Virus record (IMG/VR): IMGVR_UViG_2579778674_000002
Location: 1 to 7,629 of that record
DNA from: a virus
Taxonomy: Duplodnaviria; Heunggongvirae; Uroviricota; Caudoviricetes
DNA length: 7,629 bases
Reading direction: 5' to 3' (one strand)
Positions 1 to 7,629 of the stretch are shown piece after piece; positions within the stretch are counted from its first letter, which is position 1; every line of letters starts with the position of its first letter. The position numbers and the translations under genes are program-made. The notes below the pieces were generated by a model that worked only from the letters and a program-made list of their open reading frames with translations, was not told where the DNA came from and did no database searches.

Positions 1-657
1 TTTTTCCGTGAGAGCTATCCCTTCACCACGGAGAAAGTCTATCTCTCACAAATTCCGGGGCTGGTAAACATGGCGCTGTACGTTTCGCCGATTGTTTCCG
101 GTGAGGTTATCCGCTCCCGTGGCGGCTCCACCTCTGAATTTACACCGGGATATGTCAAGCCCAAGCATGAGGTGAATCCGCAGATGACCCTGCGTCGCCT
201 GCCGGATGAAGATCCACAGAATCTGGCGGACCCGGCTTACCGCCGCCGTCGCATCATCATGCAGAACATGCGAGACGAAGAGCTGGCCATTGCTCAGGTC
301 GAAGAGATGCAGGCAGTTTCTGCTGTGCTTAAGGGCAAATACACCATGACCGGTGAAGCCTTCGATCCGGTTGAGGTGGATATGGGCCGCAGTGCGGCGA
401 ACAACATCACACAGTCCGGTGGTACGGAGTGGAGCAAGCGTGACAAGTCCACGTATGACCCGACCGACGATATCGAAGCCTATGCGCTGAACGCCAGCGG
501 TGTGGTGAATATCATCGTGTTTGATCCGAAAGGCTGGGCGCTGTTCCGTTCCTTCAAAGCCGTCAGGGAGAAGCTGGATACCCGTCGGAGCTTGCCATTG
601 CTCAGGTCGAAGAGATGCAGGCCGTTTCTGCTGTGCTTAAGGGCAAATACACCATGA
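1..657 (+). CDS. E: Major capsid protein (lambda gpE-like), N-terminal part; 5' end lies upstream of the window; authentic frame ends at 587 where an internal duplication shifts the frame (ORF runs out of frame to the stop at 657)
   Basis: Frame 1 is open from position 1 (FFRESYPFTTEKVYLSQIPGLVN-MALYVSPIVSGEVIRSRGG...). The translation matches lambda major capsid protein E as I recall it. After 587 the frame reads a second copy of the same DNA out of frame (…DTRR-SLPLLRSKRCRP…) and terminates. Confidence 0.88.
   Translation, partial: FFRESYPFTTEKVYLSQIPGLVNMALYVSPIVSGEVIRSRGGSTSEFTPGYVKPKHEVNPQMTLRRLPDEDPQNLADPAYRRRRIIMQNMRDEELAIAQVEEMQAVSAVLKGKYTMTGEAFDPVEVDMGRSAANNITQSGGTEWSKRDKSTYDPTDDIEAYALNASGVVNIIVFDPKGWALFRSFKAVREKLDTRRSLPLLRSKRCRPFLLCLRANTP
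280..587 (+). repeat. Copy 1 of a 308-bp imperfect tandem direct repeat internal to gene E
   Basis: Base-by-base comparison with 588-895 at offset 308 gives 8 mismatches (copy-1 positions 285, 315, 395, 402, 423, 438, 441, 483), about 97.4% identity. Confidence 0.95.
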
Positions 658-895
658 CCGGTGAAGCCTTCGATCCGGTTGAGGTGGATATGGGCCGCAG
701 TGAGGCGAATAACATCACACAGTCCGGTGGCACGGAGTGGAGCAATCGCGACAAGTCCACGTATGACCCGACCGACGATATCGAAGCCTACGCGCTGAAC
801 GCCAGCGGTGTGGTGAATATCATCGTGTTTGATCCGAAAGGCTGGGCGCTGTTCCGTTCCTTCAAAGCCGTCAGGGAGAAGCTGGATACCCGTCG
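588..895 (+). repeat. Copy 2 of the 308-bp imperfect tandem direct repeat internal to gene E
   Basis: Same alignment as copy 1. The unit length of 308 is not a multiple of 3, so it produces a +2 frameshift in E. Confidence 0.95.
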
Positions 896-1256
896 CGGCT
901 CTCATTCCGAGCTGGAGACAGCGGTAAAAGACCTGGGTAAAGCGGTGTCCTATAAGGGGATGTATGGCGATGTGGCCATCGTCGTGTATTCCGGACAGTA
1001 CGTGGAAAACGGCGTCAAAAAGAACTTTCTGCCGGACAACACGATGGTACTGGGGAACACTCAGGCACGCGGTCTGCGCACCTATGGTTGTATTCAGGAT
1101 GCGGATGCATTGAGTGAGGGTATTAATGCGTCTCCTCGTTATCCGAAAAACTGGAAGACATCCGGCGATCCGGCGCGTGAGTTCACCATGATTCAGTCAG
1201 CACCGCTGATGCTGCTGGCTGATCCTGATGAGTTCGTGTCCGTACAACTGGCGTAA
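615..1256 (+). CDS. E: Major capsid protein (lambda gpE-like), C-terminal part in frame 3, restored by the second copy of the duplicated segment; TAA stop at 1254-1256
   Basis: ORF 615..1256 translates MQAVSAVLKGKYTMTGEAFDPVEVDMGRSEANN…GSHSELETAVKDLGKAVSYKGMYGDVAIVVYSGQYVENG…FVSVQLA, which continues the gpE sequence to its C-terminus. The first 43 aa repeat residues already encoded at 307-435 in frame 1. Confidence 0.88.
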   Translation: MQAVSAVLKGKYTMTGEAFDPVEVDMGRSEANNITQSGGTEWSNRDKSTYDPTDDIEAYALNASGVVNIIVFDPKGWALFRSFKAVREKLDTRRGSHSELETAVKDLGKAVSYKGMYGDVAIVVYSGQYVENGVKKNFLPDNTMVLGNTQARGLRTYGCIQDADALSEGINASPRYPKNWKTSGDPAREFTMIQSAPLMLLADPDEFVSVQLA

Positions 1257-1257
1257 T

Positions 1258-1285
1258 CGTGGCCCTTCGGGGCCATTGTTTCTCT
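1258..1285 (+). terminator. Stable hairpin (stem tggccc/gggcca with ttcg tetraloop, 1260-1275) followed by a T-rich tract, between the E stop and FI start; possible partial intrinsic terminator or mRNA-stabilising/translation-modulating structure
   Basis: Perfect 6-bp inverted repeat TGGCCC-TTCG-GGGCCA at 1260-1275, then TTGTTTCTCT. It begins 4 nt after the E TAA stop and ends about 22 nt before the FI ATG. Confidence 0.4.
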
Positions 1286-1297
1286 GTGGAGGAGTCC

Positions 1298-1693
1298 ATG
1301 ACGAAAGATGAACTGATTGCCCGTCTTCAGGTGCTGGGTGAGCAACTGAACCGTGATGTCAGCCTGACGGGGACGAAAGAAGAACTGGCACTCCGTGTGG
1401 CAGAGCTGGAAGAGGAGCTTGATGACACGGATGACGCTGCCGGTCAGGACACGTCTGTCAGCCCGGAAAATGCGCTGACCGGGCATGAAAATGAGGTGGT
1501 GTCAGCGCAGCCAGGGACCGTGACTGATACGGCTGCTCTGGTCACGGTTGTGGCACTGGTGACGCTGCATACCGATGCACTTCACGCCACGCGGGATGAA
1601 CCTGTGGCATTTGTGCTGCCGGGAACGGCGTTTCGTGTCTCTGCCGGTGTGGCAGCCGAAATGACAGAGCGCGGCCTGGCCAGAATGCAATAA
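1298..1693 (+). CDS. FI: Head assembly / DNA packaging protein (lambda gpFI-like)
   Basis: ATG at 1298 preceded by GGAGGAG (1289-1295). Translation MTKDELIARLQVLGEQLNRDVSLTGTKEELALRVAELEEELDD…ERGLARMQ matches lambda FI as recalled. The ORF-track start at 1259 (GTG) lies inside the hairpin and has no RBS. Confidence 0.9.
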   Translation: MTKDELIARLQVLGEQLNRDVSLTGTKEELALRVAELEEELDDTDDAAGQDTSVSPENALTGHENEVVSAQPGTVTDTAALVTVVALVTLHTDALHATRDEPVAFVLPGTAFRVSAGVAAEMTERGLARMQ

Positions 1694-1704
1694 CGGGAGG
1701 CGCT

Positions 1705-2058
1705 GTGGCTGATTTCGATAACCTGTTCGATGCTGCCATTGTCCGCGCCGATGAAACGATACGCGGGTACATGGGAACGTCAGCCACCATGACATCCGGT
1801 GAGCAGTCCGGCGCAGTAATACGTGGTGTTTTTGATGACCCTGAAAATATCAGCTATGCCGGACAGGGCGTGCGCGTTGAAGGCTCCAGCCCGTCCCTGT
1901 TTGTCCGGACTGATGATGTGCGGCAGCTGCGGCGTGGAGACACGCTGACCATCGGTGAGGAAAACTTCTGGATAGACCGGGTTTCGCCGGATGATGGTGG
2001 AAGCTGTCATCTCTGGCTTGGGCGGGGCGTACCGCCTGCCGTTAACCGTCGCCGCTGA
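1705..2058 (+). CDS. FII: Head-tail joining / head completion protein (lambda gpFII-like), GTG start
   Basis: GTG at 1705 preceded by GGGAGG (1695-1700). Translation (M)ADFDNLFDAAIVRADETIRGYMGTSATMTSGEQSG…LWLGRGVPPAVNRRR matches lambda FII. Confidence 0.9.
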   Translation: MADFDNLFDAAIVRADETIRGYMGTSATMTSGEQSGAVIRGVFDDPENISYAGQGVRVEGSSPSLFVRTDDVRQLRRGDTLTIGEENFWIDRVSPDDGGSCHLWLGRGVPPAVNRRR

Positions 2059-2069
2059 AAGGGGGATGT

Positions 2070-2648
2070 ATGGCCATACAGGGTCTTGAGCAGGCCATTG
2101 AAAACCTCAGCCGTATCAGCAAAACGGCGGTGCCTGGTGCCGCCGCAATGGCCATTAACCGCGTTGCTTCATCCGCGATATCGCAGTCGGCGTCACAGGT
2201 TGCCCGTGAGACAAAGGTACGCCGGAAACTGGTAAAGGAAAGGGCCAGGCTGAAAAGGGCCACGGTCAAAAATCCGCAGGCCAGAATCAAAGTTAACCGG
2301 GGGGATTTGCCCGTAATCAAGCTGGGTAATGCGCGGGTTGTCCTGTCCCGCCGCAGGCGTCGTAAAAAGGGGCAGCGTTCATCCCTGAAAGGTGGCGGCA
2401 GCGTGCTTGTGGTGGGTAACCGTCGTATTCCCGGCGCGTTTATTCAGCAACTGAAAAATGGCCGCTGGCATGTCATGCAGCGTGTGGCCGGGAAAAACCG
2501 TTACCCCATTGATGTGGTGAAAATCCCGATGGCGGTGCCGCTGACCACGGCGTTTAAACAGAATATTGAGCGGATACGGCGTGAACGTCTTCCGAAAGAG
2601 CTGGGCTATGCGCTGCAGCATCAACTGAGGATGGTAATAAAGCGATGA
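2070..2648 (+). CDS. Z: Tail completion protein (lambda gpZ-like)
   Basis: ATG at 2070 preceded by a G-rich RBS (GGGGGA 2061-2066). The 192-aa product MAIQGLEQAIENLSRISKTAVPGAAAMAINRV… matches lambda Z. The stop overlaps the U start (ATGA). Confidence 0.92.
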   Translation: MAIQGLEQAIENLSRISKTAVPGAAAMAINRVASSAISQSASQVARETKVRRKLVKERARLKRATVKNPQARIKVNRGDLPVIKLGNARVVLSRRRRRKKGQRSSLKGGGSVLVVGNRRIPGAFIQQLKNGRWHVMQRVAGKNRYPIDVVKIPMAVPLTTAFKQNIERIRRERLPKELGYALQHQLRMVIKR

Positions 2649-3040
2649 AACATACTGAACTCCGTGCAGCCGTACTGGATGCACTGGAGAAGCATGACAC
2701 CGGGGCGACGCTTTTTGATGGTCGCCCCGCTGTTTTTGATGAGGCGGATTTTCCGGCAATTGCCGTTTATCTCACCGGCGCTGAATACACGGGCGAAGAG
2801 CTGGACAGCGATACCTGGCAGGCGGAGTTGCATATTGAAGTTTTCCTGCCTGCTCAGGTGCCGGATTCAGAGCTGGATTCGTGGATGGAGTCCCGGATTT
2901 ATCCGGTGATGAGCGATGTCCCGGCACTGTCAGATTTGATCACCAGTATGGTGGCCAGTGGCTATGACTACCGGCGCGACGATGATGCGGGCCTGTGGAG
3001 TTCAGCCGATCTGACTTATGTCATTACCTATGAAATGTGA
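2645..3040 (+). CDS. U: Tail tube terminator protein (lambda gpU-like)
   Basis: The 131-aa product [48 protein letters not shown]…LTYVITYEM matches lambda U. The start overlaps the Z stop by 4 nt. Confidence 0.92.
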
Positions 3041-3047
3041 GGACGCT

Positions 3048-3788
3048 ATGCCTGTACCAAATCCTACAATGCCGGTGAAAGGTGCCGGGACCACCCTGTG
3101 GGTTTATAAGGGGAGCGGTAACCCTTATGCGAATCCGCTTTCAGACGTTGACTGGTTGCGTCTGGCAAAAGTTAAAGACCTGACGCCCGGCGAACTGACC
3201 GCTGAGTCCTGTGACGACAGTTATCTCGATGATGAAGATGCGGACTGGACCGCGACCGGGCAGGGTCAGAAATCCGCCGGAGATACCAGCTTCACGCTGG
3301 CGTGGATGCCCGGAGAGCAGGGGCAGCAGGCGCTGCTGGCGTGGTTTAATGAAGGTGATACCCGTGCCTATAAAATCCGCTTCCCGAACGGCGCGGTCGA
3401 TGTGTTCCGTGGCTGGGTCAGCAGTATCGGTAAGGCGGTGACGGCGAAGGAAGTGATCACCCGTACGGTGAAGGTCACCAATGTGGGACGCCCGTCGATG
3501 GCTGAAGATCGCAGTACGGTAACAGCGGCAACCGGCATGACCGTGACGCCTGCCAGCACCTCGGTGGTGAAAGGGCAGAGCACCACGCTGACCGTGGCAT
3601 TCCAGCCGGAGGGCGCAACCGACAAGAGCTTCCGTGCGGTGTCTGCGGATAAAACAAAAGCCACCGTGTCGGTCAGTGGTATGACCATCACCGTGAAAGG
3701 TGTTGCTGCAGGCAAGGTCAACATTCCGGTTGTATCCGGTAATGGTGAACTTGCTGCGGTTGCAGAAATCACCGTCACCGACAGTTAA
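3048..3788 (+). CDS. V: Major tail tube protein (lambda gpV-like) with C-terminal Ig-like (Big_2-type) domain
   Basis: ATG at 3048 preceded by GAGGA (3039-3043). The 246-aa product [24 protein letters not shown]…AEITVTDS matches lambda V. The C-terminal ~80 aa have the beta-rich T/V/S composition typical of the V Ig-like domain. The ORF-track start at 3018 overlaps U and has no RBS. Confidence 0.93.
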
Positions 3789-3803
3789 TCCGGAGAGTCA
3801 GCG

Positions 3804-4226
3804 ATGTTCCTGAAAACCGAATCATTTGAATATAACGGTGTGAGCGTCACGCTTTCTGAACTGTCAGCCCTGCAGCGTATTGAGCATCTCGCCCTGCTGA
3901 AACGACAGGCAGAACAGGCGGGAACCAGTGTCAATCGACAGGTGAGCGTGGAAGATCTCGTCAGAACCGGTGCTTTTCTGGTGGCGATGTCCCTGTGGCA
4001 TAACCATCCGCAGAAGACAAAGATGCCATCCATGAATGAAGCCGTTAAACAAATTGAGCAGGAAGTGCTTACCACCTGGCCTACAGAGGCAATTGCTCAG
4101 GCTGAAAATGTGGTAATGCGTCTGTCCGGTATGTCTGAGTTTGTTGTGAATGATGCACCTGAACAGGCAGATGACGCCGGGCCTGCAGAGCCTGTTTCTG
4201 CGGGAAAGTGTTCGACGGTGAGCTGA
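3804..4226 (+). CDS. G: Tail assembly chaperone (lambda gpG-like)
   Basis: ATG at 3804 preceded by GGAGAG (3792-3797). The 140-aa product MFLKTESFEYNGVSVTLSELSALQRIEHLALLKRQ…PVSAGKCSTVS matches lambda G. Confidence 0.92.
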   Translation: MFLKTESFEYNGVSVTLSELSALQRIEHLALLKRQAEQAGTSVNRQVSVEDLVRTGAFLVAMSLWHNHPQKTKMPSMNEAVKQIEQEVLTTWPTEAIAQAENVVMRLSGMSEFVVNDAPEQADDAGPAEPVSAGKCSTVS

Positions 4227-4642
4227 GTTTTGCCCTGAAACTGGCGCGTGAGATGGGGCGACCCGACTGGCGCGCCATGCTTGCCGGGATGTCATCCACG
4301 GAGTATGCCGACTGGCACCGCTTTTACAGTACCCATTATTTTCATGATGTTCTGCTGGATATGCACTTTTCCGGGCTGACGTACACCGTGCTCAGCCTGT
4401 TTTTCAGCGATCCGGATATGCATCCGCTGGATTTCAGTCTGCTGAACCGGCGTGAGGCTGACGAAGAGCCTGAAGATGATGTGCTGATGCAGAAAGCGGC
4501 AGGGCTTGCCGGAGGCGTCCGCTTTGACCCGGACGGGAATGAAGTTATCCCCGCTTCCCCGGATGTGGCGGGCATGACGGAGGATGACGTAATGCTGATG
4601 ACAGTATCAGAAGGGATCGCAGGAGGAGTCCGGTATGGCTGA
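3804..4642 (+). CDS. T: Tail assembly protein G-T, made by programmed -1 ribosomal frameshift at GGGAAAG (4202-4208): G frame 3804-4208, then T frame 4208-4642
   Basis: The slippery heptamer G GGA AAG sits in the G zero frame, five codons before the G stop. The -1 frame is open from 4208 to TGA at 4640-4642 and encodes VFDGELSFALKLAREMGRPDWRAMLAGMSSTEYADWHRFY…, the lambda T region. There is no RBS or ATG for an independent T start. Confidence 0.85.
4202..4208 (+). promoter_or_regulatory. -1 programmed ribosomal frameshift slippery heptamer (X XXY YYZ = G GGA AAG)
   Basis: Exact GGGAAAG in the correct phase relative to the G reading frame, with the T frame open in -1. Confidence 0.85.
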
Positions 4643-7067
4643 ACCGGTAGGCGATCTGGTCGTTGATTTAAGTCTGGATGCGGCCAGATTTGACGAGCAG
4701 ATGGCCAGAGTCAGGCGTCATTTTTCCGGTACGGAAAGTGATGCGAAAAAAACAGCGGCAGTCGTTGAACAGTCAATGAACCGGCAGGCGCTGGCTGCAC
4801 AGAAAGCGGGGATTTCCGTCGGACAGTATAAAGCCGCCATGCGTATGCTTCCTGCACAGTTCACCGACGTGGCCACGCAGCTTGCAGGCGGGCAGAGTCC
4901 GTGGCTGATCCTGCTGCAACAGGGTGGTCAGGTGAAGGACTCCTTCGGCGGTATGATCCCCATGTTCAGGGGACTTGCCGGTGCGATCACCCTGCCGATG
5001 GTCGGGGCCACCTCGCTGGCAGTGGCGACCGGTGCGCTGGCGTATGCCTGGTATCAGGGCAACTCAACCCTGTCCGATTTCAACAAAACGCTGGTCCTTT
5101 CCGGCAATCAGTCGGGTCTGACGGCAGATCGTATGCTGGTCCTGTCCAGAGCCGGGCAGGCGGCAGGGCTGACGTTTAACCAGACCAGCGAGTCACTCAG
5201 CGCACTGGTTAAGGCTGGGATAAGCGGTGAGGCTCAGATTGCGTCCATCAGCCAGAGTGTGGCGCGTTTCTCCTCTGCATCCGGCGTGGAGGTGGACAAG
5301 GTCGCTGAAGCCTTCGGGAAGCTGACCACTGACCCGACGTCGGGGCTGACAGCGATGGCACGCCAGTTCCATAACGTGACGGCGGAGCAGATTGCGTATG
5401 TTGCTCAGTTACAGCGTTCCGGCGATGAAGCCGGGGCATTGCAGGCGGCGAACGAGGCCGCAACGAAAGGGTTTGATGACCAGACCCGCCGCCTGAAAGA
5501 GAACATGGGCACGCTGGAGACCTGGGCAGACAGGACAGCGCGGGCATTCAAATCCATGTGGGATGCGGTGCTGGATATTGGTCGTCCTGATACCGCGCAG
5601 GAGATGCTGATTAAGGCAGAGGCTGCGTTTAAGAAAGCAGACGACATCTGGAATCTGCGCAAGGATGATTATTTTGTTAACGATGAAGCGCGGGCGCGTT
5701 ACTGGGATGATCGTGAAAAGGCCCGTCTAGCGCTTGAAGCCGCCCGAAAGAAGGCTGAGCAGCAGACTCAACAGGACAAAAATGCGCAGCAGCAGAGCGA
5801 TACCGAAGCGTCACGGCTGAAATATACCGAAGAGGCGCAGAAGGCTTACGAACGGCTGCAGACGCCGCTGGAGAAATATAGCGCCCGTCAGGAAGAACTG
5901 AACAAGGCACTGAAAGACGGGAAAATCCTGCAGGCGGATTACAACACGCTGATGGCGGCGGCGAAAAAGGATTATGAAGAGACGCTGAAAAAGCCGAAAC
6001 AGTCCGGCGTGAAGGTGTCTGCGGGCGATCGTCAGGAAGACAGTGCTCATGCTGCCCTGCTGACGCTTCAGGCAGAACTCCGGACGCTGGAGAAGCATGC
6101 CGGAGCGAATGAGAAAATCAGCCAGCAGCGCCGGGATTTGTGGAAGGCAGAAAGTCAGTTCGCGGTACTGGAGGAGGCGGCGCAACGTCGCCAGCTGTCT
6201 GCACAGGAGAAATCCCTGCTGGCGCATAAAGATGAGACGCTGGAGTACAAACGCCAGCTGGCTGCACTTGGCGACAAGGTTACGTATCAGGAGCGCCTGA
6301 ACGCGCTGGCGCAGCAGGCGGATAAATTCGCACAGCAGCAACGGGCAAAACGGGCCGCCATTGATGCGAAAAGCCGGGGGCTGACTGACCGGCAGGCAGC
6401 GCGGGAAGCCACGGAACAGCGCCTGAAGGAACAGTATGGCGATAATCCTCTGGCGCTGAATAACGTCATGTCAGAGCAGAAAAAGACCTGGGCGGCTGAA
6501 GACCAGCTTCGCGGGAGCTGGATGGCAGGCCTGAAGTCCGGCTGGAGTGAGTGGGAAGAGAGCGCCACGGACAGTATGTCGCAGGTAAAAAGTGCAGCCA
6601 CGCAGACCTTTGATGGTATTGCACAGAATATGGCGGCGATGCTGACCGGCAGTGAGCAGAACTGGCGCAGCTTCACCCGCTCCGTGCTGTCCATGATGAC
6701 AGAAATTCTGCTTAAGCAGGCAATGGTGGGGATTGTCGGGAGTATCGGCAGCGCCATTGGCGGGGCTGTTGGTGGCGGCGCATCCGCGTCAGGCGGTACA
6801 GCCATTCAGGCCGCTGCGGCGAAATTCCATTTTGCGACCGGGGGATTTACGGGAACCGGCGGAAAATATGAGCCAGCGGGGATTGTTCACCGTGGTGAGT
6901 TTGTCTTCACGAAGGAGGCAACCAGCCGGATTGGCGTGGGAAATCTCTACCGGCTGATGCGCGGCTATGCCACCGGCGGGTATGTCGGTGGCACCGGAAA
7001 CCGGCGGTTATGTCGGTACACCTGGCAGCATGGCGGACAGCCGCTCGCAGGCGTCCGGGACGTTTGA
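4635..7067 (+). CDS. H: Tail tape measure protein (lambda gpH-like); authentic frame runs 4635-6989, then a 28-bp insertion shifts the frame and the ORF ends prematurely at 7067
   Basis: ATG at 4635 overlaps the T stop (ATGGCTGA). Translation MAEPVGDLVVDLSLDAARFDEQMARVRRHFSG… with a hydrophobic segment, a long E/K/Q/A-rich coiled-coil region and a Gly-rich C-terminal region matches lambda H up to …LMRGYATGGYVG, after which the sequence is unrelated (GTGNRRLCRYTWQ…). Confidence 0.92.
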   Translation: MAEPVGDLVVDLSLDAARFDEQMARVRRHFSGTESDAKKTAAVVEQSMNRQALAAQKAGISVGQYKAAMRMLPAQFTDVATQLAGGQSPWLILLQQGGQVKDSFGGMIPMFRGLAGAITLPMVGATSLAVATGALAYAWYQGNSTLSDFNKTLVLSGNQSGLTADRMLVLSRAGQAAGLTFNQTSESLSALVKAGISGEAQIASISQSVARFSSASGVEVDKVAEAFGKLTTDPTSGLTAMARQFHNVTAEQIAYVAQLQRSGDEAGALQAANEAATKGFDDQTRRLKENMGTLETWADRTARAFKSMWDAVLDIGRPDTAQEMLIKAEAAFKKADDIWNLRKDDYFVNDEARARYWDDREKARLALEAARKKAEQQTQQDKNAQQQSDTEASRLKYTEEAQKAYERLQTPLEKYSARQEELNKALKDGKILQADYNTLMAAAKKDYEETLKKPKQSGVKVSAGDRQEDSAHAALLTLQAELRTLEKHAGANEKISQQRRDLWKAESQFAVLEEAAQRRQLSAQEKSLLAHKDETLEYKRQLAALGDKVTYQERLNALAQQADKFAQQQRAKRAAIDAKSRGLTDRQAAREATEQRLKEQYGDNPLALNNVMSEQKKTWAAEDQLRGSWMAGLKSGWSEWEESATDSMSQVKSAATQTFDGIAQNMAAMLTGSEQNWRSFTRSVLSMMTEILLKQAMVGIVGSIGSAIGGAVGGGASASGGTAIQAAAAKFHFATGGFTGTGGKYEPAGIVHRGEFVFTKEATSRIGVGNLYRLMRGYATGGYVGGTGNRRLCRYTWQHGGQPLAGVRDV

Positions 7068-7224
7068 GCAGAATAACCATGTGGTGATTAACAACGACGG
7101 CACGAACGGTCAGATAGGGCCACAGGCACTGAAGGCTGTTTATGACGTAGCCCGTAAGGCGGCAATGGATGTTGTGACCGGGCAGATGCGCGATGGTGGT
7201 CTGTTCTCCGGAGGTGGACGATGA
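6967..7224 (+). CDS. H: C-terminal portion of the tape measure protein H displaced into frame 1 by the 28-bp insertion (H-matching from about 7018); probably not independently expressed
   Basis: The frame-1 ORF encodes …GYVGTPGSMADSRSQASGTFEQNNHVVINNDGTNGQIGPQALKAVYDVARKAAMDVVTGQMRDGGLFSGGGR, the expected gpH C-terminus. Its stop overlaps the M start (ATGA at 7221-7224), as expected for H. Confidence 0.8.
   Translation: MPPAGMSVAPETGGYVGTPGSMADSRSQASGTFEQNNHVVINNDGTNGQIGPQALKAVYDVARKAAMDVVTGQMRDGGLFSGGGR
6990..7017 (+). repeat. 28-bp insertion in H that partly repeats the adjacent sequence (accggcggNtatgtcggt at 6972-6989 and 7000-7017)
   Basis: 18-bp direct repeat with one mismatch, 28 bp apart. 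Removing 6990-7017 restores a continuous H reading frame of 853 codons. Confidence 0.85.
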
Positions 7225-7550
7225 AAACCTTCCGCTGGAAAGTGAAACCCGGTATGGATGTGGCTTCGGCCCCTTCCGTCAGGAAGGTGCGCTTTGGTGA
7301 TGGCTATTCTCAGCGTGCGCCTGCCGGGCTGAACGCCGACCTGAAAACGTACAGCGTGACGCTTTCTGTTCCCCGCGAGGAGGCCACGGCACTGGAATCG
7401 TTTCTGGCAGAGCACGGGGGCTGGAAGGCCTTTCTGTGGACGCCGCCTTATGGCTACCGGCAGATAAAGGTGACCTGCGCAAAATGGTCGTCGCGGGTCA
7501 GTATGTTGCGTGTTGAGTTCAGCGCAGAGTTTGAACAGGTGGTGAACTGA
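7221..7550 (+). CDS. M: Minor tail protein (lambda gpM-like)
   Basis: The 109-aa product MKTFRWKVKPGMDVASAPSVRKVRFGDGYSQRAPAGLNADLKTYSVTLSVPREEATALESFLAEHGGWKAFLWTPPYGYRQIKVTCAKW… matches lambda M. The start overlaps the end of H. Confidence 0.9.
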   Translation: MKTFRWKVKPGMDVASAPSVRKVRFGDGYSQRAPAGLNADLKTYSVTLSVPREEATALESFLAEHGGWKAFLWTPPYGYRQIKVTCAKWSSRVSMLRVEFSAEFEQVVN

Positions 7551-7629
7551 TGCAGGATATCCGACAGGACACACTGAATGAATGCACCCGTGCGGAGCAG
7601 TCGGCCAGCGTGGTGCTCTGGGAAATCGA
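7550..7629 (+). CDS. L: Minor tail protein (lambda gpL-like), 5' part only; continues beyond the window
   Basis: ATG at 7550 overlaps the M TGA (TGATG). Translation MQDIRQDTLNECTRAEQSASVVLWEI matches the lambda L N-terminus. The frame is open to the window end. Confidence 0.8.
   Translation, partial: MQDIRQDTLNECTRAEQSASVVLWEI

Follow-up and report, generated by a model that had tools for sequence, protein, structure and literature searches.

Frame disruptions in the E and H genes of a lambda-like prophage contig from Escherichia coli FCH1 are very probably alleles of paralogous prophages assembled in series

Cryptic lambdoid prophages of E. coli (Rac, DLP12, and Qin in K-12 are examples) typically carry large deletions, IS insertions, and many lesions common to related strains, and lambdoid prophages that reside in the same cell exchange sequence. 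Genes can also appear falsely duplicated or broken through assembly. False duplications whose copies show allele-specific differences are a described class of artefact, defined on the haplotypes of diploid vertebrates, in which diverged versions of one locus become adjacent in a single scaffold (Ko et al. 2022, Genome Biol 23:205; PMC9516828). In the original SOAPdenovo scaffolding, "heterozygous contigs were improperly handled", and the old GapCloser could make wrong choices where repeats were highly similar (Luo et al. 2012, GigaScience 1:18; PMC3626529). The window analysed here, 7,629 bp long, is the entire WGS contig AYKD01000080.1 of E. coli FCH1 (GCA_000511545.1), in which the reading frames of two structural genes, E and H, are interrupted.

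The window has the same genes in the same order as the E to L region of phage lambda (J02459), namely E-FI-FII-Z-U-V-G-T-H-M-L on one strand according to the annotated lambda alignment and Pfam (Table 1), with 95.9% nucleotide identity across the full window (100%) and a conserved G-T slippery site. The first-pass annotation, made from the letters and their reading frames, had described the genes other than E and H as complete, and this is correct, with FI, FII, Z, U, V, G, T, and M at full length, L represented by its start, and the GGGAAAG heptamer in phase, a simulated -1 shift at 4202 giving an uninterrupted G-T fusion that ends at 4642. Its description of the proteins as nearly identical to those of lambda is approximate, given the 95.9% nucleotide identity and the nonsynonymous codons found in G (20) and FI (14). 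The window differs from lambda in representing a wild prophage lineage, in having an FI gene shorter by one codon (a 3-nt deletion, the 131-aa form being found also in intact relatives), and in containing two extra segments. The 276 substitutions relative to lambda show a third-codon-position bias and cluster as a mosaic, which, together with a distance of 1-3 substitutions from wild prophages, rules out a noisy or artificially mutated sequence. An identical V protein occurs on 18 other contigs (24 contigs read), and an Rfam scan of the window returned no RNA family at gathering score.

Table 1. Features of the 7,629-bp window, with positions counted from its first base
Feature	Position	Strand	Basis or remark
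E from codon 27 (contig opens mid-gene), backbone allele	1-278	+	Window 1 = lambda 6213 = E nt 79
Extra 308-nt E segment, RM10042-type allele, frame +2	279-586	+	Without counterpart in any relative
E resumed at backbone position 279, through to stop codon	587-1256	+	Alignment, frame
FI (DNA packaging), 131 aa	1298-1693	+	Pfam Packaging_FI match on called gene
FII (head-tail joining), 117 aa	1705-2058	+	Lambda alignment, Pfam
Z (tail completion), 192 aa	2070-2648	+	Lambda alignment, Pfam
U (tail terminator), 131 aa	2645-3040	+	Lambda alignment, Pfam
V (major tail tube protein), 246 aa	3048-3788	+	Pfam, protein match
G (tail assembly chaperone), 140 aa	3804-4226	+	Called gene, Pfam
G-T programmed -1 frameshift heptamer GGGAAAG, intact, phase G GGA AAG	4202-4208	+	
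T reading frame, expressed as G-T fusion	4208-4642	+	Called gene, Pfam
Tape-measure H, first 779 codons, backbone allele	4635-6971	+	Identical to comparison contig L006
Extra 28 nt in H, ACCGGCGGGTATGTCGGTGGCACCGGAA, Nissle-1917-type allele stretch, frame +1	6972-6999	+	
H resumed 28 nt back, backbone allele, to natural stop	7000-7224	+	Identical to comparison contig L006
M (tail tip), 109 aa	7221-7550	+	Called gene, Pfam
L start, 26 codons, contig stops mid-gene	7550-7629	+	Lambda alignment, Pfam

Both frame disruptions pointed out in the first-pass annotation are present in the given sequence and correspond to insertions of 308 and 28 nt. Alignment to lambda and to closer relatives places the 308 extra bases of E between 279/280 and 586/587. 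TRF reports a repeat at 280-895 with a period of 308, 2.0 copies, 97% matches, and a score of 1176, in agreement with a repeat search, and such a 308-nt repeat is far beyond chance. Because 308 (3 x 102 + 2) is not a multiple of 3, E is thrown out of frame; the disrupted gene stops at 655-657, a 213-aa ORF at 615-1256 retains its C-terminal part, and the E frame is uninterrupted once 1-278 is joined directly to 587-1256. The extra copy differs from the backbone copy at nine sites (279, 285, 315, 395, 402, 423, 438, 441, and 483), and at all nine it has the state of the RM10042 prophage (L004), more specifically A279, G285, A315, C395, C402, T423, G438, T441, and T483. The extra segment begins exactly at the first allele-discriminating base, 279, and ends at 586, the next discriminating site lying at about 595 if the donor was RM10042-like. 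Complete E. coli genomes match it at up to 99.7% identity, and alleles of its family are common, 389 records reaching ≥99%. The flanking parts belong to the backbone allele, since 1-278 and 588-1300 each show 0 mismatches to the intact-prophage contigs L005, L006, L007, and L011, and the RM10042-type allele differs from 1-278 at 60, 162, and 216. One base, T at 501, inside the otherwise RM10042-type stretch, fits no allele in the complete-genome collection.

In H, alignment to relatives reveals 28 extra bases that no relative has, the first 18 of which repeat 7000-7017 with one mismatch. The 18-nt repeat by itself could be due to chance, but the alignment of the relatives shows a real 28-nt insertion. 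Here too the frame is shifted because the length (3 x 9 + 1) is not a multiple of 3, so that translation of H yields 810 aa and stops at 7067, compared to 853 aa with a stop at 7224, and joining 4635-6971 to 7000-7224 restores the 853-aa protein. According to the allele alignment, the 28 nt are another allele's version of the same stretch: positions 6945-6999 align in one piece (54/55) to H of Nissle 1917, ATCC 11775, and others, and the insert matches a Nissle-type H allele (L014) at 27 of 28 positions, including the allele-specific GGCACCGGAA, its last 10 nt being exactly those of the Nissle-type allele, which carries TATGTCGGTGGCACCGGAAG. The region 4635-6971 is not itself Nissle-type, because that allele differs at several upstream sites, and H restarts 18 nt ahead of the fork between the alleles. 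The G at 6980 fits no allele in the complete-genome collection. A variant of an in-frame H repeat that has lost 1-2 nt is ruled out, no insertion being present at this place in any H allele of 5,426 genomes.

When 279-586 and 6972-6999 are excised, the remaining 7,293 nt differ by 1, 2, 3, and 3 substitutions from the four independent contigs named above, all of which have intact E (341 aa) and intact H (853 aa), and wild E. coli prophage contigs match the backbone at >99.9%. The neighbouring genes show no other sign of decay, whether frameshifts, deletions, IS elements, or excess substitutions, and the rest is full length. The insertions in E and H are both absent from 5,426 complete E. coli genomes, the 24-26-mers spanning the junctions had 0 matches in the genome, metagenome, and viral contig collections scanned, and a search of about 15 billion proteins found the 810-aa H and the 213-aa E products on no other contig. 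The full-length matches, among those listed, all cover about 7,293 bp as two aligned pieces. In E. coli genomes with a match, the window is matched at a median of 2 places and at up to 10, and co-resident donor alleles are therefore to be expected.

The origin of the contig points in the same direction. FCH1, the assembly behind AYKD01 (PMC6455142), was isolated from the faeces of a pig farmer (PMC6455142, PMC4270446), sequenced on a HiSeq with 90-bp paired-end reads and a 500-bp insert (BioProject PRJNA224245; de Been et al. 2014, PMC4270446) and assembled with SOAPdenovo v1.05, with k picked from 21-63 for the fewest scaffolds (PMC4270446). The authors of that data set reported that blaTEM, present in nearly identical multiple copies, was mis-assembled (PMC4270446). 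AYKD01000080.1 starts within E and ends within L, both conserved phage genes, and such ends inside genes are typical of a repeat-bounded contig.

Both frameshifts are very probably a false duplication of the heterotype kind, as judged from the sequence, in which paralogous prophage alleles were put in series by the assembler. This reading is based on the anatomy of the junctions, the foreign-allele inserts, the near-identical intact relatives, the origin of the assembly, and the fact that these junctions were found nowhere else. The differences between the copies fall on sites that distinguish two real gene versions (9/9 in E, 27/28 in H), removal of one copy restores the frames and leaves the sequence of independent assemblies to within 1-3 substitutions, and the duplicated arrangement is absent from other assemblies and genomes of the lineage. 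The likeness to the described artefact class lies in diverged versions of a locus standing adjacent in one scaffold and breaking genes (PMC9516828), each copy in the window being a distinct natural allele. The differences are that the class was defined on diploid vertebrate haplotypes (PMC9516828), whereas paralogous prophages of a haploid bacterium would be involved here, that the likeness is drawn from the sequence, the class being defined by read depth and k-mers, and that no N run is left between the copies in the window.

We hypothesize that FCH1 most likely bears more than one lambda-like prophage, and that divergence between the co-resident prophages in E and H would have produced forks in the de Bruijn graph. 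The assembler, during SOAPdenovo v1.05 scaffolding or gap filling with 90-bp reads, may have kept both branches instead of one, so that part of the allele from the other prophage, 308 nt long in E and 28 nt long in H, would have been placed in series ahead of the backbone copy. The prophage in the FCH1 cell would have an intact E (341 aa) and an intact H (853 aa), like its intact relatives. We infer the exact assembler step, and also that other FCH1 contigs contain an RM10042-type E and a Nissle-type H. The assembler belongs to the generation, v1.05, whose errors have been described, but that description does not include this outcome, with both arms in tandem (PMC3626529); nothing specific to tandem-duplication artefacts of SOAPdenovo or GapCloser was found in the literature. 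Some observations count against an artefact. The geometry of the junctions, with overlaps of 308/309 nt in E and of 28 nt in H, where the fork is at +18, is not reducible to a simple k-1 overlap rule. The G at 6980 and the T at 501 match no allele in the complete-genome collection. AYKD01000080.1 is also listed with two samples, which, if the second is an independent read set, would require the artefact to be reproducible; the two could instead be a GenBank/RefSeq pair, and the 810-aa H product is counted on one contig only.

The first-pass annotation had listed a recently inactivated (cryptic) prophage, an assembly chimera from a genome that harbours several lambdoid prophages, and an engineered lambda derivative as candidates, and had chosen none. 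Of these, the assembly chimera is favoured, as the inserts are other natural alleles placed ahead of the backbone allele, the remainder lies within 1-3 substitutions of intact prophages, and the contig is a short, repeat-bounded SOAPdenovo v1.05 scaffold built from 90-bp reads. We give only a small chance to real lesions, that is, to a very recently inactivated cryptic lambda-like prophage in which patches from two other resident lambdoid prophages, inserted beside the homologous positions, for instance when repair or replication switched template, broke E and H. Such a history would fit the presence of both insertions in the deposited sequence, the frequent co-residence of lambdoid prophages, and the frequency of frameshifted structural genes in defective E. 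coli prophages (the EC416 prophage, for instance, has genes annotated as frameshifted or partial). Nevertheless, it requires two independent non-homologous insertions within 6.4 kb, each of which must bring exactly the other-allele copy of the adjacent stretch, from a different donor each time, with one tract of just 28 nt and neither junction showing homology of more than 1 nt, and all this without other decay in a sequence 1-3 substitutions from intact prophages. Although its structural genes look interrupted, as in Rac, DLP12, and Qin, the window outside the inserts is essentially that of intact prophages, and its lesions, instead of being shared with related strains or prophages, are found on one contig only and in no other genome or collection, in an assembly made by a method prone to exactly such an error. 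A cryptic prophage is unlikely for these reasons, and the earlier wording of lesions and damage is not supported either. It is very unlikely that the insertions are genuine in FCH1 DNA as a snapshot of ectopic template switching, with 28- and 308-nt tracts coming from two other co-resident lambdoid prophages; if true, template switching would have instantly inactivated an otherwise pristine prophage.

The head-to-tail layout and the 97% identity of the E copies would also suit a tandem duplication within one prophage, by slippage or unequal exchange, whose copies later diverged by point mutation. This is ruled out as extremely improbable by the identity of the differences with pre-existing alleles: all nine E differences correspond to an allele of hundreds of genomes, which random mutation would not produce, and the last 10 nt of the H insert are exactly Nissle-type. 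Moreover, there would have been no time for a copy divergence of about 3% in E or about 17% in H, because the flanking 7.3 kb are 1-3 substitutions from relatives. An engineered or laboratory lambda derivative, present as a vector or contamination and changed deliberately or accidentally, would share the lambda gene order, and laboratory derivatives are indeed among the matches, but the identity to lambda, DE3, and imm21 derivatives is only 95.9%, the 276 substitutions are biased to third positions, the match to wild prophage contigs exceeds 99.9%, and the source is faecal material from a pig farmer, so that this candidate is effectively excluded. Functional recoding by programmed frameshifts in E and H is likewise effectively excluded. 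Lambda-like tails do use one programmed frameshift, that of G-T, which is intact here, but the insertions occur on this contig alone without conservation, neither junction has a slippery heptamer, and E and H are single-frame in all relatives.

Taken at face value, AYKD01000080.1 has a major capsid gene split in two and a truncated tape-measure gene; the damage is probably not real and the window probably offers nothing new, and the absence of a novel functional system had been correctly stated from the start. The biological weight of the finding is small, as the element concerned is a lambda-like prophage of an ordinary kind, of which intact copies circulate in E. coli. In practice, it provides an example of how short-read scaffolds of genomes with several prophages can yield false pseudogenes, and the 810-aa "H" and 213-aa "E" products are already present as singletons in the public protein collection. 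An extra copy that corresponds to another natural allele and adjoins a backbone with the sequence of intact relatives offers a reusable diagnostic of assembly error that does not depend on reads. Prophage-completeness calls, counts of pseudogenes, and protein databases would all be skewed by errors of this type.

The structural region of lambda that runs from E into the beginning of L (6213-13508) aligns to the whole window with 95.9% identity. The substitutions relative to lambda fall mainly at third codon positions and show mosaic clustering, which marks the window, on these sequence grounds, as naturally diverged lambdoid DNA and neither noise nor laboratory lambda. A look-up by exact protein identifies the window as the complete WGS contig AYKD01000080.1 (7,629 bp) of assembly GCA_000511545.1, which belongs to E. 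coli FCH1 (PMC6455142). The left end of the contig lies inside E and its right end inside L. FCH1 is a CTX-M-1 isolate from pig farmer faeces, collected in 2011 (PMC4270446). As the first-pass annotation had described, the genes FI, FII, Z, U, V, G, T, and M have their full length, and L is represented by its beginning. The shorter FI reflects, judging from the 131-aa length common to intact relatives, allelic variation rather than a lesion.

The two frame disruptions previously noticed in E and H are present in the sequence of the contig: aligning the window with lambda and with closer relatives reveals exactly two insertions, of 308 nt in the capsid gene E and 28 nt in the tape-measure gene H. 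Since 308 is 3n+2, E loses its frame past the first copy and reaches a stop codon; since 28 is 3n+1, H is called as a protein of 810 aa.

Coordinates of the insertions and other features in the window
Feature	Position	Remarks
Insertion in E	279/280-586/587	308 nt
Tandem repeat	280-895	308-nt unit, 2.0 copies, 97% matches (TRF; a second repeat search agrees)
Stop codon in E	655-657
ORF with C-terminal part of E	615-1256	213 aa
Substitution in FI	1516	G in the window, T in L005, L006, L007, and L011; third codon position; sole substitution setting the repaired window apart from all four of these nearest intact relatives
Deletion in FI	1524-1526	3 nt, relative to lambda only; FI is 131 aa, 132 aa in lambda
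Inverted repeat, V/L	3576-3594 / 7602-7620	19 nt, 95% complementary; Big_2 part of V and start of L; also in lambda; probably chance or a sequence relic, no function suggested
G-T slippery heptamer	4202	GGGAAAG, in phase
Insertion in H	6972-6999	28 nt
End of H as called	7067
End of natural H C-terminus	7224	in another frame

Judged by the alleles they match, the extra segments are not duplicates of the sequence beside them, and this is the key result. The sequence of intact prophages of this lineage, hereafter termed the backbone, shows zero mismatches to positions 1-278 and 588-1300 and nine to 279-586 (279, 285, 315, 395, 402, 423, 438, 441, and 483). All nine sites carry the state of the E allele of the RM10042 prophage, which itself differs from the window at 60, 162, and 216 within 1-278 and belongs to a common allele family (389 records at ≥99% identity). 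The foreign stretch starts exactly at the first allele-discriminating base, and after 308 nt the contig returns to backbone position 279. The best match of the extra piece in complete E. coli genomes is 307/308, where the T at 501 fits no allele. The backbone also has T at 501, so the extra piece may itself revert to the backbone somewhere from 484 to 501.

In H, the contig follows the backbone without a mismatch up to 6971 and is not Nissle-type there. The 28-nt insert, ACCGGCGGGTATGTCGGTGGCACCGGAA, is the homologous part of another tape-measure allele, present in Nissle 1917, ATCC 11775, and many further strains. With its upstream context, the insert matches the Nissle-type allele as one piece (54/55), and alone it matches a contig carrying that allele at 27/28, including the allele-specific GGCACCGGAA. 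After the insert, the contig steps back 28 nt and proceeds in the backbone allele. Within this 28-mer, the G at 6980 fits no allele in complete E. coli genomes; strain-specific variation, additional chimerism in the graph, or error may account for this base and for the T at 501.

Both lesions thus follow one pattern, a piece of another allele and then a backbone restart at the homologous position, and the junctions share one base of homology at most. A match to 80% or more of the window occurs in 3,132 of 5,426 complete E. coli genomes; all full-length matches listed span ~7,293 bp in two pieces and thus lack the insertions, and the 28-nt insert is in none of the H-site matches listed. Among ~15 billion proteins, the 810-aa H and 213-aa E products were found on no contig but this one, unlike the V protein, which is on many, and junction-spanning 24-26-mers had no exact match in genome, metagenome, or viral contig collections. 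The protein look-up counts two samples with this contig, and the cluster look-up one contig for the 810-aa product; the two-sample count may be a GenBank/RefSeq pair. If the second sample instead represents a related isolate that was assembled independently (e.g. FCP1, sampled on the same farm), one and the same pipeline would generate the artefact reproducibly.

A genuine, very recent inactivation of the prophage, one of the explanations first proposed, seems improbable, as two non-homologous insertions would have to arise independently within 6.4 kb, each supplying precisely the neighbouring stretch in another allele's version; the donor allele differs between the two, and the recipient prophage otherwise shows no decay. 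In-situ duplication followed by divergence of the copies is contradicted by the allele matches of the extra segments, and the backbone had no time to diverge. The suggestion of an engineered lambda derivative is likewise contradicted, by 276 substitutions relative to lambda and by the faecal provenance of FCH1, and programmed recoding in E and H by a complete absence of conservation.

Of the candidates initially put forward, the one supported is an assembly chimera in a multi-prophage genome, given that the inserts are other natural alleles and the remainder is nearly identical to intact prophages. The pattern of both lesions most likely reflects an assembly artefact and not biology, so that the feature would not be real. 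E. coli genomes matching the window have a median of two matching places and a maximum of ten, indicating that co-resident lambdoid prophages are the rule. The FCH1 reads (HiSeq 2000, 90-bp paired-end, 500-bp insert) were assembled with SOAPdenovo v1.05, with k of 21-63 picked for fewest scaffolds, and nearly identical multi-copy blaTEM genes were mis-assembled in the same data set (PMC4270446). With 90-bp reads, the near-identical structural genes of co-resident prophages would give chained forks and bubbles in the de Bruijn graph, and a 7.6-kb contig from inside E to inside L would be the expected product of such repeats. Two paralogous alleles would then act like a heterozygous pair, and placing both arms in series would give exactly the observed structure. 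The lesions would fall into the general class of "heterotype false duplication" (PMC9516828). The SOAPdenovo2 authors name two weaknesses of the first SOAPdenovo that are relevant here: its scaffolding did not treat heterozygous contigs properly, and wrong selections were possible in the earlier GapCloser owing to high similarity between repeats (PMC3626529). The junction geometry does not fit a simple k-1 overlap, and we infer that scaffolding or gap filling was the faulty module. This explanation predicts that the junctions lack read support in FCH1 and that the donor alleles are present elsewhere in its genome.

In two relatives fetched through the exact V protein, L008 (1-7300; GCA_027555945.1, DALXZB010000041.1) and L013 (1-2000; Logan SRR14866862_355), a different block lies left of about E codon 77 and takes the place of the head genes, and the window aligns from position 152 onward only. 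The block encodes DUF4222, a D5_N/DUF5906 primase, SSB, AlpA, a second Phage_cap_E capsid protein (346 aa) accompanied by a separate decoration gene, and, on the opposite strand, Abi_C; it resembles a mobile element, satellite-like or of another kind, adjoining a truncated E. The EC416 prophage, the closest complete-genome relative, adjoins prfC. Downstream of its tail-fibre genes (28100-30200 of L002), a frameshifted recombinase, a TIR-domain protein, and a truncated reverse-transcriptase gene form what looks like a defence-type cargo region.

Independent contigs of the same prophage lineage, retrieved through the exact V protein, carry E and H uninterrupted, at 341 and 853 aa. Excision of 279-586 and 6972-6999 leaves 7,293 nt, which are 1, 2, 3, and 3 substitutions away from four of these contigs (L006, L005, L007, and L011, respectively). 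Both reading frames are then open, with E continuing to its stop codon and H reaching 853 aa. The underlying element is most likely an ordinary, intact lambda-like prophage.
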